Positions 53,290-58,738 of a stretch of 64,000 nt of DNA are shown here, piece after piece. Each line of letters opens with the position of its first letter. The stretch's first letter is position 1. Source of the DNA: Candidatus Thorarchaeota archaeon. Lineage in GTDB: Archaea > Asgardarchaeota > Thorarchaeia > Thorarchaeales > Thorarchaeaceae. Under the pieces are notes generated by a model, which saw only the letters and a list, made by a program, of their open reading frames with translations, had not been told where the DNA came from and did not search any database. Where the stretch lies: NCBI GenBank assembly GCA_003345545.1, contig PRDH01000026.1, positions 86,944 through 150,943 on the forward strand. The letters run 5' to 3'. Made by a program: the position numbers and the translations under genes.

Positions 53290-54354
53290 ATGAATAAGAA
53301 CGCAATTATCGCGATAGTTCTAATCGTGGTCATTGGCGTCGCTGGTGTTGGCGTATACCTCATGATTCAACCAGTACACAACCGGTATGAGATTGCAATT
53401 GTATTTGCGACGGGTGGACTGGGTGACAAGTCATTCAATGACGGAGTCAAACTGGGTGCCGACAAAGCACACACTGACTACAATATCAACTTCACGTTTT
53501 CAGAGCCTGGGGCAATATCTGATTACGAATCATTGATCAGAGGTTACGCGGCGCATGCCGGGTTAATCCAGCCCTATGCACTCATAATCAGTGTCGGCTT
53601 TGATCAGGCTGATGCTGTTATGGCAGTCGCCACGGACTATCCTGACCAGGAATTCGCAATCATAGACATGTTCATTGACCCAGTGAACTACACCAACGTG
53701 GCATCAGTGCTGTTCACTGAGAACGAGGGTTCAGCCCTTGTCGGTGCGATCGCTGGACTCATGACCACGACTGACAAGATCGGTTTCCTCGGTGGCATGG
53801 ATATCCCACTTATCCGCAAGTTCTACGCCGGTTATGTCTACGGAGCGAACATCACGAATCCGGGTATTAGCTATACTGCGCAGTATGTTGGTGACTGGGC
53901 AGACACTGCCACTGGCAAGACAATGACCCATGGTATGTACACTGCTGGCTATGACATTGTGTTTGCTGCAGCAGGTAGGTCAGGCCTTGGAGCTTTTGAA
54001 GCAGCCAAGGAAGACAACGCGACCTCCCCGCATCCAACGTGGGTCATCGGAGTCGACTCGCCTCAGATGTACTTGGGTTGCGCAAACACAACAAATCCAG
54101 TAGCACCAACGGTCGCTCTGACTTCAATGCTGAAGCGTGTTGATATCGCAGCGTATGACCTCATGAAAGATGCAGTCATTGGCACTTGGGTAAGTGGACT
54201 GAAATTCTACAACCTGGTCAATGGTGGGCATGACTACGAGGTCAATACAGCTCTGCGTACATTGCCACCATCTGTCATTAGTCAGGTAGAGATGATCAGA
54301 ACCGGAATTATCAACGGAACCTATGTGGTACCGTCTGATGTGTACTGGACATAG
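53290..54354 (+). CDS. BMP-family (PnrA/NupN) nucleoside ABC substrate-binding protein
   Basis: GGLGDKSFND, ENEGSALVG, KIGFLGGMD, VIGVD and SMLKRVD. Confidence 0.9.
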   Translation: MNKNAIIAIVLIVVIGVAGVGVYLMIQPVHNRYEIAIVFATGGLGDKSFNDGVKLGADKAHTDYNINFTFSEPGAISDYESLIRGYAAHAGLIQPYALIISVGFDQADAVMAVATDYPDQEFAIIDMFIDPVNYTNVASVLFTENEGSALVGAIAGLMTTTDKIGFLGGMDIPLIRKFYAGYVYGANITNPGISYTAQYVGDWADTATGKTMTHGMYTAGYDIVFAAAGRSGLGAFEAAKEDNATSPHPTWVIGVDSPQMYLGCANTTNPVAPTVALTSMLKRVDIAAYDLMKDAVIGTWVSGLKFYNLVNGGHDYEVNTALRTLPPSVISQVEMIRTGIINGTYVVPSDVYWT

Positions 54355-54367
54355 GATTTAGTGTATC

Positions 54368-54400
54368 AGAGGGGAATGTTCCCCTCTTCCTCTCTTTTTT
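54368..54400 (+). terminator. Hairpin plus T-tract after the bmp gene
   Basis: AGAGGGGAA-tg-TTCCCCTCT then TCCTCTCTTTTTT. Confidence 0.7.
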
Positions 54401-54510
54401 CCCTCTATGTCTTACAGATACCTCAATGTTAAATACCCGCGTATGTTTTTTGTCTACGACAGGAAGTGTGCTCTGAGACATCGCCATTTAGTCAGTTGGA
54501 GGTGTAGGCT

Positions 54511-56313
54511 ATCTACGCGGTAGAGCTCGAAAACATCAGCAAGACATTCCCCGGAGGCGTTCAGGCGAACAAGGACATCACGCTTAGAATCGAACAAGGT
54601 GAGGTCCATGGACTACTGGGAGAAAATGGGGCCGGGAAGTCCACCCTAATGAACATCTTGTATGGACTCCTTTCGCCCTCCGCGGGAACTGTCAAGATAA
54701 AGGGGGAGGAAGTCGTCCTCCGGTCACCAGAAGATGCGATAGATCGAGGAGTCGGAATGGTTCATCAGCATTTCAAGCTGATACAACCACTTACTGTTAC
54801 TGAGAACATCATGATGGGGTATGAATCACCTGGTAGAGGTCACAACAGGTATGCCGTTGCTGTGACCCTACTTGTCCTGGTTTTTTCTGTCTCTCTCTTC
54901 CTTCTCTTTCTCGGCTCTATTCCTGCACTAATAGCGTCAGTAGCTTTGGTTCTTGTTATCATCGCCGCGTACAAATCATATGAAATCATGAACTACATAG
55001 TGGAAAAGCTGTACCCTCACACCAGCAGAGGTGGAGTTAGAGGGTTTGTCGCCCGATTTCTGTATTCGATATCAATGACGTTTCGATATTTCATCATGAA
55101 TTTCGTTCCCCTGGGAATCCATGAAGCAGCCGAGAAAATAAAGAGAATCGCAGACGAAAATGGCCTCGCCATCGATCCGAACGCAAGAATACTGGATATT
55201 TCCGTAGGCCTTCAGCAGCGGGTCGAGATCATCAAGGCACTCTATCGGGAAGCAGAGATTCTCATACTTGATGAACCAACCTCAGTTCTCACTCCCCAAG
55301 AAGTGGACGAGCTCTTTGCCACATTGGAGAAATTCAAGGACAGTGGCAAAACAATCATTCTGATAACCCACAAACTCAGAGAGCCAATGGCGCTTTGTGA
55401 TAGAATCAGTGTGCTCCGAGACGGAGAGCTTGTCGGTACAGTGAATAGAGTCGATACATCTCCCGAGGAACTGGCTCAAATGATGGTCGGGAGACCTGTA
55501 GTGTTTCGTGTTCAAAAAGGACCTGCTACTCCTGGTGATGTCGTGCTGGACGTTCAAGATATTTCTGCGAAGGATGTTCGAGGATTACCAGCGGTAAAGG
55601 GTGTAACGTTCCAAGTAAGGGCAGGAGAGATATTTGGACTGGCTGGTGTCGAAGGAAATGGACAGACAGAGCTAGTTGAGGTTTTGACAGGTCTCCTCAA
55701 ATCAGATCATGGTAACATATACGTTAAGGGGAGGAATGTCACAGGAAAAGGCCCTAGGACGATGAGGGAGGCAGGCATTGGCCATATTCCAGAAGACCGT
55801 CACAAGAGAGGGCTAATCCTCCCATTCACAATTGAAGAGAACTTGGCTTTGGGGAACCACTATCGTCCTCCATACTCATCCAAGAAGGCGGGAATACCAG
55901 GTTTTCTGAATCTCAATACAATTCAGAAGAATGCAGAGAAGCTCGTTCATGACTTTTCCATCAAAGTAGGTCGGGTCACTGACACTGCAGACACTCTGTC
56001 TGGGGGGAACCAGCAGAAGGCAGTTGTCGCAAGGGAGCTGAGTTCAGAACCTATTGCTCTGGTAGCTGCTCAGCCGACAAGGGGGCTAGACGTCGGTGCG
56101 ACTGAATACATTCACAACGTGCTCATTTCTCTCAGGGATTCAGGTGTCGGTGTACTTTTGATTTCAGCAGAGCTTGACGAGATACGCAACCTTTCGGATA
56201 GGATTGGAGTCATATTCGGTGGTCGAATAGTGGCAATAAAAGATCCAGAAACAACTACGCCACAGGAGTTGGGATTACTAATGGCTGGACAGACAGGGGA
56301 GGTGCTTCAATGA
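54511..56313 (+). CDS. Nucleoside ABC ATPase (CUT2, two NBDs) with internal TM insertion; probable ATC start
   Basis: The frame continues upstream of the track's Met: IYAVELENISKTFPGGVQANKDITLRIEQGEVHGLLGENGAGKSTL (Walker A); also SVGLQQRVEI, LDEPT, LSGGNQQK and QPTRGLD. Confidence 0.9.
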   Translation: MYAVELENISKTFPGGVQANKDITLRIEQGEVHGLLGENGAGKSTLMNILYGLLSPSAGTVKIKGEEVVLRSPEDAIDRGVGMVHQHFKLIQPLTVTENIMMGYESPGRGHNRYAVAVTLLVLVFSVSLFLLFLGSIPALIASVALVLVIIAAYKSYEIMNYIVEKLYPHTSRGGVRGFVARFLYSISMTFRYFIMNFVPLGIHEAAEKIKRIADENGLAIDPNARILDISVGLQQRVEIIKALYREAEILILDEPTSVLTPQEVDELFATLEKFKDSGKTIILITHKLREPMALCDRISVLRDGELVGTVNRVDTSPEELAQMMVGRPVVFRVQKGPATPGDVVLDVQDISAKDVRGLPAVKGVTFQVRAGEIFGLAGVEGNGQTELVEVLTGLLKSDHGNIYVKGRNVTGKGPRTMREAGIGHIPEDRHKRGLILPFTIEENLALGNHYRPPYSSKKAGIPGFLNLNTIQKNAEKLVHDFSIKVGRVTDTADTLSGGNQQKAVVARELSSEPIALVAAQPTRGLDVGATEYIHNVLISLRDSGVGVLLISAELDEIRNLSDRIGVIFGGRIVAIKDPETTTPQELGLLMAGQTGEVLQ

Positions 56314-57785
56314 TTGAGGAGAGCACTCCTTCAATGGAGCAGACAGCATTACTCACATTCGTTGACCGTCTTATGATGAGATTGAAATCGAAGAGCCTTC
56401 ATCGCAATATCCTCCATACATTCGCATCTATTGTTCTTGCCTTGGGTACAGCTGCAATTATCATGCTTGCGACAGGATACGACCCACTCCAAGCATTCTC
56501 AGCTCTTTTCCTAGGAGCAATCCTGAATTTTGACCAGGTACTGTGGAGAGCAACTCCACTCCTCCTTGCAGGACTCTCAGTTGCTCTCGCCTTCAAGTGC
56601 GGGCTCTTCAATATAGGAGCTGAAGGCCAGTTGTATATGGGCTCTCTCGCCGCAACTGCGGTTGGATATATGATAGCCCTTCCTATCGTGGTCCACCAAT
56701 TGGCTTGTCTCGTGGTTGGTGTTGGAGTTGGTTTCCTCTATGCCTTGCTTCCAGGCGTACTCAGAGCATATAGGGGTGCCCATGAAGTCGTCACGACGAT
56801 GATGCTGAGCTATGCCGCTGTGTTCTTCACCCAATGGATGGTTTCACAGGGTCCAATGCACAATCCTGGCGATTGGAGAAGCATTTCTCCAATCATTTTC
56901 GATTCTGCTCAGATTCCCAAGATTCTCGGAAGTGCGTTCTTGAATTGGGGATTCATAATCGCCGTGCTATTCGTCGTGGTTGTTGATTTCTTCATCAATA
57001 AGACGGTCATGGGCTACGAAATGAGAGCTGTCGGGTCTAATGAAGACGCAGCAAGGACTGCAGGAATCGATGCCAAACGAAACATGGCAATCGCTCTAGG
57101 ATTGAGTGGGGCATTGGCAGGTCTTGCTGGTGCGGTCGAGGTCCAAGGCTACTATCATAGATTCTACGATCAGTGGTCAGGTGGTCTGGGATTCGATGGC
57201 ATTACAGTGGCAGTCCTCGGCAGAAACAACCCTTGGGGGGTTCTAGGGGGTGCTATATTCTTCGGCGCTCTCAAAGCAGGAGGCCTGTTCATGCAGACGA
57301 GTGCAGAGGTGCCAAGCGAGATGGTACAGGTTATTCAGGGCCTCGTTGTGTTGTTTGTTGCTGCCCCTCGCCTGATAGACTGGTTCTCGAATCATGGAGT
57401 CGCCTACGCAAGATGGATAAAGGATAGGCCACTATTCGGCTTTCTGAGTCTCATTGCTCTTTCATACGGGGTTTTTGGAGCCTTCATGGGAATACTAGTA
57501 GCAGGCCCATATGTATCATCGAACTTCTCCCTACTTCTTCTTGGTTTTGTGACCAGCATTGGAGGCCTTGTGGTAGCCATATTCCATTTCCAAAGAGATG
57601 AACGGCGAACACGAGCGACTTGGATGGTAGCTCTTCTGTGGGCTCTGATGCTCGTTTCGGGTTTATCCATGGCAGCAGCTTCTGTGGTTTCGGTTGCTCT
57701 CACACTGGCAGGAGTTGGGTTCGTCATTTCCATTCTTCTGATGAGATTGCAGCCGAAAAGTGATGAACTAAAGGAGGCAGCATGA
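56310..57785 (+). CDS. Nucleoside ABC permease 1 with about 4 extra C-terminal TM helices
   Basis: GLFNIGAEGQ, HEVVTTMML and GFDGITVAVLGRNNP; ATGA overlap with the ATPase gene. Confidence 0.88.
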   Translation: MIEESTPSMEQTALLTFVDRLMMRLKSKSLHRNILHTFASIVLALGTAAIIMLATGYDPLQAFSALFLGAILNFDQVLWRATPLLLAGLSVALAFKCGLFNIGAEGQLYMGSLAATAVGYMIALPIVVHQLACLVVGVGVGFLYALLPGVLRAYRGAHEVVTTMMLSYAAVFFTQWMVSQGPMHNPGDWRSISPIIFDSAQIPKILGSAFLNWGFIIAVLFVVVVDFFINKTVMGYEMRAVGSNEDAARTAGIDAKRNMAIALGLSGALAGLAGAVEVQGYYHRFYDQWSGGLGFDGITVAVLGRNNPWGVLGGAIFFGALKAGGLFMQTSAEVPSEMVQVIQGLVVLFVAAPRLIDWFSNHGVAYARWIKDRPLFGFLSLIALSYGVFGAFMGILVAGPYVSSNFSLLLLGFVTSIGGLVVAIFHFQRDERRTRATWMVALLWALMLVSGLSMAAASVVSVALTLAGVGFVISILLMRLQPKSDELKEAA

Positions 57786-58738
57786 TGCTTCAAGTCGATC
57801 CATTCTCACCTATCATGATTGCTCTGTTGATTGAGACAACTCTCCAGATGGCGACTCCACTGGTTCTGACTGCATTAGGCGGCATGTTCAGTGAGAGATC
57901 AGGTATTGTGAACATCGGTCTTGAGGGAATGATGCTCATTGGAGCATTTGGGGCGGTAGCGGCCACATTCTTCTCAAACAATCCATGGATCGGTATTGTT
58001 GTAGCTGTGATAGCAGGGGGGCTACTCGCTGCCATCCATGCTGTAATAACTGTGAAGCTCAAGGGAAATCACATTGTTAGTGGAACCGGAGTGATTCTTT
58101 TCGCGACAGGGTTCACGACCTTGATGCTGTACGTGATCTGGGGAGCTCGTGGCATATCAGAAGAAGTCACAAGAGTACCCCAAATCATAATTCCGGGAAT
58201 TGAAGGAATTCCAATCATAGGTGAGGTGTTTGGCTCTCTGTCCCCAATGATCTATATGATGTTCTTTGCGGTCTTAATCAGCTGGCTGATTCTGTACAAG
58301 ACGCCCTTTGGCCTGAGACTCAGAGCAGCTGGCGAAGACCCAAGCACGCTAGATGCTGCTGGCGTAAACGTGGAAACGATTCGATTCGTCGCAGTCATCA
58401 TAAGTGGTTGCCTTGCAGGACTCGGAGGAGCTTACCTCTCAATTGGATTTGGATCAAGGTTCGGGAAACTTATGACCTCAGGTCGAGGTTTCATAGCACT
58501 CGCCGCATTGATATTTGGTGGTTGGAGACCCATAGGATGCTTCTTGGCAGGCATGTTTTTCGGATTTCTTGATGCTCTTCAATCCTTCATATCTTTGGTA
58601 GTGCCAGAACTACTGCCTTACAACAATTTCATTCAGATGATACCGTACATACTCGTTGTGATTGCTCTCGCAGGAATCGGTCGGGCAAGACCACCAAAGG
58701 CAGTTGGTACTAATTACGAAAAGGAAAGGCCAGCATAG
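57782..58738 (+). CDS. Nucleoside ABC permease 2
   Basis: SERSGIVNIGLEGMM, GLRLRAAGE, GRGFIALAALIFG and MIPY. Confidence 0.9.
   Translation: MMLQVDPFSPIMIALLIETTLQMATPLVLTALGGMFSERSGIVNIGLEGMMLIGAFGAVAATFFSNNPWIGIVVAVIAGGLLAAIHAVITVKLKGNHIVSGTGVILFATGFTTLMLYVIWGARGISEEVTRVPQIIIPGIEGIPIIGEVFGSLSPMIYMMFFAVLISWLILYKTPFGLRLRAAGEDPSTLDAAGVNVETIRFVAVIISGCLAGLGGAYLSIGFGSRFGKLMTSGRGFIALAALIFGGWRPIGCFLAGMFFGFLDALQSFISLVVPELLPYNNFIQMIPYILVVIALAGIGRARPPKAVGTNYEKERPA

Follow-up and report, generated by a model that had tools for sequence, protein, structure and literature searches.

A conserved hydrophobic hairpin nested within nucleotide-binding domain 1 of a Thorarchaeota importer ATPase: a candidate membrane module

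Introduction

Can the ATPase of an ATP-binding cassette (ABC) importer carry its own membrane helices inside the ATPase fold, and if so, to what effect? The question is raised by a gene on the + strand, at 54511..56313, of a stretch of 64,000 nucleotides from a Candidatus Thorarchaeota archaeon (contig PRDH01000026.1, positions 86,944 to 150,943; hereafter the window). Its product, P0001, is the tandem ATPase of a nucleoside-type importer, with two nucleotide-binding domains (NBD1 and NBD2) in one chain, and NBD1 is interrupted by a hydrophobic insert. We argue that this insert is probably a functional and selected membrane module.

In textbook ABC importers the permeases are embedded in the membrane, while the ATPases are soluble and peripheral. 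A conserved clade in which transmembrane helices interrupt the ATPase fold would break this division of labour and, if true, would imply that a 'cytoplasmic' motor is targeted to the membrane co-translationally. Such a clade would also amount to a natural experiment on how tightly the helical subdomain of an NBD must be tied to the membrane domain. The insert is carried by Asgard archaea, a group whose membrane-protein repertoire is already seen as unusual, and is a further instance of this.

Results

Position and size of the insert

The ATPase frame (54508-56313, +) is open throughout its 601 codons. The gene, the parts of the insert and the helix that precedes it are as follows (Hessa values in kcal/mol; pLDDT, predicted local distance difference test).

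54511..56313, + strand: tandem-NBD ABC ATPase gene of CUT2/BMP type; probable start ATC at 54511
54790..54819, + strand: helix after the Q-loop, LTVTENIMMG, residues 95-104; L95, V97, E99, N100 and G104 invariant; AlphaFold2 helix 97-102
54829..55107, + strand: whole insert, residues 108-200 of P0001, from the orthologue alignment and profile breaks
54847..54909, + strand: predicted transmembrane helix 1, residues 114-134; AlphaFold2 helix, pLDDT ~77-94; Kyte-Doolittle 2.92; Hessa -4.05
54916..54978, + strand: predicted transmembrane helix 2, residues 137-157; Kyte-Doolittle 2.65; Hessa -0.87; within AlphaFold2 helix 137-173
54979..55026, + strand: putative polar continuation of helix 2 into the cytoplasm, residues 158-173; AlphaFold2 continuous helix 137-173; Hessa +19.7
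55036..55098, + strand: amphipathic Arg-rich helix, residues 177-197, leading back into the NBD; AlphaFold2 helix; hydrophobic moment 0.41, mean hydrophobicity 0.27

Pfam ABC_tran, NCBIfam models of CUT2 type and ABC domains in PDB all cease to align at residues ~106-111 and pick up again at ~205-210, which places the insert in NBD1 between the Q-loop helix and the remainder of the helical subdomain. Between the invariant E106 and the conserved P201 there are 93 residues in P0001 as against ~20 in insert-less orthologues of the same genus, a net gain of ~73. The stretch that separates the Q-loop motif from the signature motif measures 130 residues in P0001, 57 in insert-less Asgard proteins and ~41 in the bacterial relatives that were measurable; over this interval the bacterial proteins are ~16 residues shorter than the insert-less Thorarchaeota orthologues. 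A first-pass annotation of the window had placed a transmembrane hairpin at 54832-55104 (residues 109-199), inside the limits given here, and the orthologue and profile alignments agree on the location; its figure of about 10 residues at this site in CUT2 ATPases is roughly right for the family as a whole, but too low for the closest relatives.

In ABC transporters the groove that receives the permease's coupling helix is lined by the helix after the Q-loop. The insert begins 4 or 5 residues past this helix (LTVTENIMMG), within which we take M103 to correspond by motif – ENIIFG in CFTR – to F508 of CFTR, which makes contact with the coupling helix of the membrane domain. The NBD1 interface with the transmembrane domain (TMD) of CFTR, together with the adjoining 'structurally diverse region', has been described (PMC6572788). 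Because the insert begins just past the helix of the coupling-helix groove, it should leave the NBD right beside the permease-facing side, a placement drawn from general knowledge of ABC structure and not from a model of this complex.

Properties of the hairpin

The hydrophobicity of the two helices stands apart from the rest of the chain. Kyte-Doolittle means were taken over 19-residue windows, and the Hessa values are simple sums on the biological scale, the lowest sum outside the hairpin being +7.98 kcal/mol (versus -4.05 and -0.87 for the helices). AlphaFold2, supplied with an 86-sequence alignment, returned a mean pLDDT of 85.9 and helices at 114-134, 137-173 and 177-197, with means of 75-94 for ten-residue blocks across 111-200. 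The loop joining helices 1 and 2 (about residues 135-136, in the stretch LGSIPA) is uncharged.

The same properties recur throughout the homologues. In all 58 homologue clusters with two-helix inserts both helices have a Kyte-Doolittle mean of at least 1.65 (means 2.4-2.5); Lys or Arg occurs in the inter-helix loop of none of the 58, the median distance between the 19-residue windows being a single residue; and the flanks carry on average 2.5 Lys plus Arg on the N side and 1.7 on the C side. This is the sequence pattern of an N-in/C-in two-helix membrane hairpin, in keeping with the positive-inside rule. Since both ends of the insert return to the cytoplasmic NBD, N-in/C-in is also the only compatible topology.

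Two strongly hydrophobic helices followed by amphipathic helices had been noted in the first-pass annotation, and hydropathy, predicted helices and hydrophobic moment all bear this out. Its further claim, that the ATPase is membrane-anchored, stands as regards the composition and charge of the hairpin (58 of 58 clusters), whereas insertion itself we infer: the insert-bearing ATPase is probably an integral membrane protein.

Conservation and selection

Dozens of assemblies, made independently and drawn from NCBI, JGI, ENA and Logan, contain the insert, and its length is conserved among them. The 2.69-Mb assembly of the window genome (G000) has a single copy of it, by DNA as well as by protein search, and of the 25 motif-complete ABC domains encoded there only this one, in P0001, shows hydrophobic peaks between Walker A and signature. 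Its length is identical in the four full-length genus orthologues aligned, although two of these have reached an insert dN (nonsynonymous divergence) of 0.64 and 0.93 relative to the window gene. For the window genome and G001, the sole pair in which synonymous divergence (dS) is unsaturated (0.82-0.88), the insert has a dN/dS of 0.23, compared with 0.05 for the gene outside it. Homologues share a median of 23% identity with P0001 over the insert and 67% over the adjacent ABC segment, with hydrophobicity maintained. The insert is under purifying selection.

Family and catalytic motifs

Pfam ABC_tran (PF00005) matches P0001 in two stretches (E 1.9e-46), in which the following motifs were located.

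54619..54645, + strand: NBD1 Walker A, GENGAGKST, residues 38-46; invariant columns in the alignment
55201..55218, + strand: NBD1 signature, a variant of SVGLQQ type, residues 232-237; S232, G234 and Q237 invariant
55258..55275, + strand: NBD1 Walker B, ILILDE, with the catalytic Glu, residues 251-256; D255 and E256 invariant
55645..55668, + strand: NBD2 degenerate Walker A, GVEGNGQT, Lys replaced by Gln, residues 380-387; G383, N384, G385 and Q386 invariant
55996..56013, + strand: NBD2 canonical signature, LSGGNQ, residues 497-502; invariant columns in the alignment

In NBD1 the Q-loop Gln (Q87) and the H-loop His (H288) are also present and are invariant in 86 aligned homologues, among which V233, L235 and Q236 of the signature are each at least 90% conserved. 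NBD2 is without a catalytic Glu after Walker B, and the GNGQT form of its Walker A is invariant in 86 of 86 aligned Asgard homologues. The motifs of both domains, said in the first-pass annotation to be intact, are indeed present, the Walker A of NBD2 in this degenerate form. With complete catalytic motifs in NBD1, and a degenerate Walker A and no catalytic Glu in NBD2, it is the insert-bearing domain that supplies the one complete ATP site.

The best NCBIfam matches of P0001 are all models of CUT2 type, headed by NF047930 with a score of 426.4 against a cut-off of 670; P0001 reached the cut-off of no NCBIfam equivalog (B6, AraG, XylG, RbsA, MglA and others). Judged by motifs, best family matches and operon, P0001 is a BMP/CUT2-type tandem-NBD importer ATPase, and we take its group to belong to CUT2 (Transporter Classification 3.A.1.2) and to be of the YufO/NupA/RbsA/MglA type. 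A sequence search found no CUT2-type ATPase among PDB structures – the best match was ABCA4, E 2.7e-35 – so that the parent architecture, too, is without a structural reference. Foldseek against PDB returned only other tandem-NBD ATPases and was uninformative on the hairpin. P0001 is the only CUT2-type ATPase detected in the window genome: if the uptake system works there, it works with the insert.

Distribution and phylogeny

The insert is not unique to the window gene but marks out a large clade among the Thorarchaeota homologues. Of the closest 90%-identity clusters, 118 could be scored: about 65 have a hydrophobic insert at the NBD1 site and 49 have none. Two-helix inserts, with spacers of 112-132 residues, make up 58 of the 118, and a further six clusters have four hydrophobic peaks and a spacer of 157 residues. 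In one cluster, P0069, a spacer of 222 residues comprises two hairpins, one a tandem duplicate of the other (z 10.8; 0 of 500 shuffles); tandem duplication as the source of the 157-residue four-helix form is not supported (z 1.8). Five clusters have a short, non-hydrophobic expansion with a spacer of 74-78 residues. The members of this class (P0102, P0072, P0080, P0081 and P0091) are Gly/Leu/Arg- or Glu-rich, and their loops are possibly an amphipathic expansion. The insert is absent from 79 bacterial matches, whose lengths of 1431-1587 nt are too short to contain it; these are among the matches listed in a contig scan, mostly bacterial, and served as the insert-less outgroup.

Among 400 species genomes of the phylum an orthologue is present in 77, spread over four family codes. 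The insert-bearing form occurs in ~18 of the 77, all of family f1 (genera g1, g15, g16, g24, g25, g26 and g29); among the species genomes searched the insert is thus confined to a single Asgard family, where at least seven genera have it. This distribution is taken from full-length matches, a search of the 400 genomes with the insert alone being too insensitive, with most of its weak matches apparently spurious. A word-based search with the insert region likewise returned one near-identical cluster only. Searches of this kind are insensitive because the insert diverges fast. Within the genus of the window genome the insert is carried by G001, G004 and G024 (full length), by G003 and G007 (on cut contigs) and by G364, and is lacking in about a dozen orthologues.

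In a FastTree phylogeny built without the insert columns all insert-less rows fall on one side of a branch with support 86, and the four-helix forms nest within the two-helix part. A tree with bacterial outgroups needs two changes, only one of which is forced by well-supported branches; this is compatible with a single gain of the NBD1 insert, though it does not prove one. The binding proteins of the operons divide in the same manner, with 80-87% identity to that of the window in insert-type operons and 44-60% in operons of the insert-less type. Most genomes have only one type of operon; G003 has both (G003:C166 and G003:C28; L004/L022). The operon-wide split and the presence of both types in G003 make the two forms look like old paralogous or exchanged operon types, not recent indels.

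Membrane-type helices have also been added elsewhere in these proteins. The longer members (697, 768-769 and 862 aa) have two to four extra hydrophobic helices in NBD2, as have P0076 and P0114, which lack the NBD1 insert. The NBD2 inserts do not occupy the Q-loop-to-signature site equivalent to that in NBD1; they belong to the beta subdomain, where they follow the Walker A helix and surround the first beta-hairpin. Since P0076 and P0114 lie inside the insert-less part of the tree, their NBD2 inserts represent an independent gain. The ATPase frame of G343 (L115; G343:C27, 2726-7125), of 776 codons, has two helices in NBD1 and four in NBD2, in an operon of two tandem Bmp binding-protein genes, the ATPase and two permeases. 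With both permeases kept beside this long variant, the helices of the ATPase do not replace a permease. The permease-1 open frame of the same operon runs to 710 codons, with ~230 extra N-terminal residues and 13 hydrophobic peaks.

Origin of the insert

No donor gene emerged: protein and DNA searches of the insert's own genome match only the locus itself, an insert-only profile run against 1.84 billion representatives gave one match, a family member, and a search of the ESM Atlas gave no usable match. The graded series of spacers (41, 57, 74-78, 112-132, 157 and 222 residues), together with the duplication in P0069, suggests instead the in-place growth of a plastic loop.

Discussion

Proposed function

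A central issue is what the insert does. The reading that we favour, and consider likely, is that the hairpin spans the membrane by the permease that docks on NBD1, making the ATPase a permanent integral subunit. Two helices of ~21 residues, joined on the outside by a very short loop, would make up a transmembrane hairpin of N-in/C-in topology; helix 2 would run on into the cytoplasm, and the amphipathic Arg-rich helix would return the chain to the helical subdomain. As the hairpin leaves the NBD 4-5 residues past the helix of the coupling-helix groove, it should sit in the membrane beside the NBD1-docking permease. The competent NBD1 would thereby be tied to its own permeases, and the interface between NBD and permease stabilised at the helical subdomain. 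A secondary possibility is that the hairpin, emerging early in translation, brings the translating operon mRNA to the membrane, given that residues 114-157 are encoded early in the first cistron after the binding protein, ahead of two translationally coupled permease genes.

Several observations weigh against a dedicated membrane module of this kind. The insert changes 3-4 times faster than the remainder of the protein. Closely related species of the same genus are without it, so that it must be dispensable for the transporter type as such. In addition, no permease feature was found that co-occurs with the insert: the C-terminal extension of permease 1 was a candidate, and was ruled out on account of its presence in insert-less operons as well.

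The main rival keeps the hairpin in the membrane and gives it a regulatory or mechanical role in the first place: it could sense or transmit the state of the membrane (lipid packing, membrane potential or a partner protein) or serve as a third coupling element linking NBD1 and permease. The position of the insert speaks for this. It hangs on the helical subdomain, which rotates on ATP binding; it follows directly on the helix that lines the coupling-helix groove; and it lies in NBD1, holder of the only complete set of Walker A and Walker B. As modelled, helices 137-173 and 177-197 would also give a fairly rigid connection, and lineages have repeatedly gained further membrane helices. The helices themselves, however, contain no conserved polar or charged residue that would point to the sensing of a ligand or ion, the only invariant column of the insert-only alignment being the final Gly, and low sequence conservation suits a generic anchor better than a specific sensor. 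Anchoring and regulation are not mutually exclusive; as the main role, we think regulation improbable.

Could the insert simply be a surface loop that has been allowed to expand, without function of its own, its helices packing on the protein or on the permease's cytoplasmic face, or dipping no further than the inner leaflet? The spacer does vary within the family (41, 57, 60, 74-78, 112-132, 157 and 222 residues), near relatives lack the insert, it evolves faster than its surroundings, and searches for a donor sequence were negative. A dN/dS of 0.23 and an identical length in four full-length genus orthologues are nonetheless at odds with a loop free to drift, and two exposed hydrophobic helices would be costly on a soluble domain. 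Two hydrophobic helices of ~21 residues are kept, and Lys and Arg excluded from the loop between them, in 58 of 58 clusters, as expected of spanning helices and not of helices packed on a surface. Given selection and the charge pattern, functionless expansion appears unlikely, and we rank it below a regulatory role.

That the insert is an assembly chimera, an intein, a mobile in-frame repeat or a sequence removed before the protein is made is effectively excluded by its recovery from dozens of assemblies in four sources, its single copy, the lack of any Pfam match and codon-level purifying selection. Its G+C content, 0.43-0.44 against ~0.48-0.49 in the rest of the gene, is slightly low and its sequence T-rich, as hydrophobic codons lead one to expect. 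Inteins begin with Cys or Ser, contain a TxxH block, end in His-Asn followed by Cys, Ser or Thr, and measure ~130 residues or more, known mini-inteins being longer than the ~93 residues found here. The insert starts PGRGHN and ends FIMNF-VPLG, with, by eye, neither an N-terminal nucleophile nor a C-terminal His-Asn; the first-pass annotation had read it as in frame and free of intein motifs, and so it is. As to a mobile repeat, searches of the window genome with DNA and protein match only the insert's own locus.

Comparison with known systems

Outside the insert P0001 is a conventional member of its family. It shares ~50% identity with bacterial members of BMP/PnrA type and, like canonical BMP/PnrA-type (CUT2) ATPases of nucleoside/sugar importers, has two NBDs in one chain, a signature of SVGxQQ type in NBD1 and a degenerate Walker A in NBD2; its operon, too, has the usual Bmp binding protein and two BPD_transp_2 permeases. 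Unlike canonical CUT2 ATPases, which are soluble and peripheral, it has a Q-loop-to-signature spacing of 130 residues that includes two membrane-type helices.

Large inserts at this site of the ABC fold have precedents. The coiled coil of Rad50/SMC and the arm of EttA are both inserted between Q-loop and signature. In UvrA the insertion domain and the UvrB-binding domain, both soluble, occupy the same place (PMC6486640). As in these proteins, the helical ('signature') subdomain of P0001, also called the structurally diverse region, takes a large nested insert while the ATPase motifs are kept. Unlike them – their inserts are soluble and bind DNA, the ribosome or a partner – the insert of P0001 is a hydrophobic two-helix hairpin, and the host is the ATPase of a transporter. 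A lineage-specific insertion near the NBD-TMD interface is also a feature of CFTR NBD1 (PMC6572788); the CFTR insertions, however, are soluble, with disorder in part, and the site of the regulatory insertion is a different one. ATPase and membrane helices are united in one polypeptide in transporters of the ABCB, ABCG and MacB types, but there the NBD is uninterrupted and the membrane domain, joined to one of its ends, provides the translocation path, whereas the NBD fold of P0001 encloses its helices and the operon continues to encode separate permeases.

The first-pass annotation did not recognise this architecture as described. Full-text searches of the literature, which did not cover all journals, turned up no account of an ABC NBD with membrane helices nested in it, and searching a survey of Asgard transporters (PMC7997004) for related terms found no mention of the insert. 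Where the insert is common, it is common only in uncharacterised metagenomic homologues: it occurs in two-helix and four-helix forms across a large Thorarchaeota clade, and is absent from the bacterial relatives listed and from part of the orthologues.

A wider, and tentative, proposal is that hairpins nested in NBDs are a general and as yet undescribed evolutionary route of ABC importers, by which the 'soluble' motor subunit acquires membrane helices that would join the permease bundle and couple the rotation of the helical subdomain to the membrane domain, or gate it by the state of the membrane. In this Thorarchaeota family such helices have arisen at two sites, have undergone duplication and occur together with permease extensions; jointly these could form an accessory membrane domain with its own function. 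We regard this as possible, though doubtful.

The operon and the start of the gene

The ATPase belongs to a four-gene operon (window 53290-58738, +) of a Bmp/PnrA-like binding protein, the tandem-NBD ATPase and two BPD_transp_2 permeases. Apart from the ATPase gene itself, its features are these.

53290..54354, + strand: Bmp/PnrA-like substrate-binding protein; open reading frame; Pfam PF02608, E 2.4e-51; N-terminal hydrophobic anchor
54498..54504, + strand: Shine-Dalgarno-like GGAGGTG, 6 nt upstream of the probable ATC start of the ATPase
56310..57785, + strand: permease 1; Pfam PF02653, E 4.9e-43, residues 75-350; C-terminal extension of ~4 helices
57782..58738, + strand: permease 2; Pfam PF02653, E 1.8e-44

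The window locus has an intact operon, in which the start of permease 1 overlaps the stop of the ATPase, and the start of permease 2 that of permease 1. The order binding protein–ATPase–permeases is the same in relatives.

The start of the ATPase gene is unusual. The stretch from the in-frame TAG upstream (54505) to Walker A contains no ATG, GTG or TTG, and the first canonical start, the ATG at 54649, falls after Walker A. The same Shine-Dalgarno-like motif, at the same spacing, precedes an Ile codon in G001, G002, G005 and G014 (ATC) and in G024 (ATT); in all five this codon directly precedes YAVELE, at which place G004, G009, G011 and G013 have ATG. These alignments point to a conserved AUC/AUU start for the ATPase. 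Public gene calls shorten the gene to an internal ATG (P0003, 554 aa) and domain tools report only 'ABC_tran', with evident consequences for annotation.

The C-terminal extension of permease 1 (window 57370-57785; also in L015-L021) comprises ~110-130 residues, which add ~4 hydrophobic helices to the PF02653 core. All the Thorarchaeota orthologues examined have the extension, those of insert-less ATPase operons included, and one of its loops is longer by 6-8 residues in the insert-less operons of the genus.

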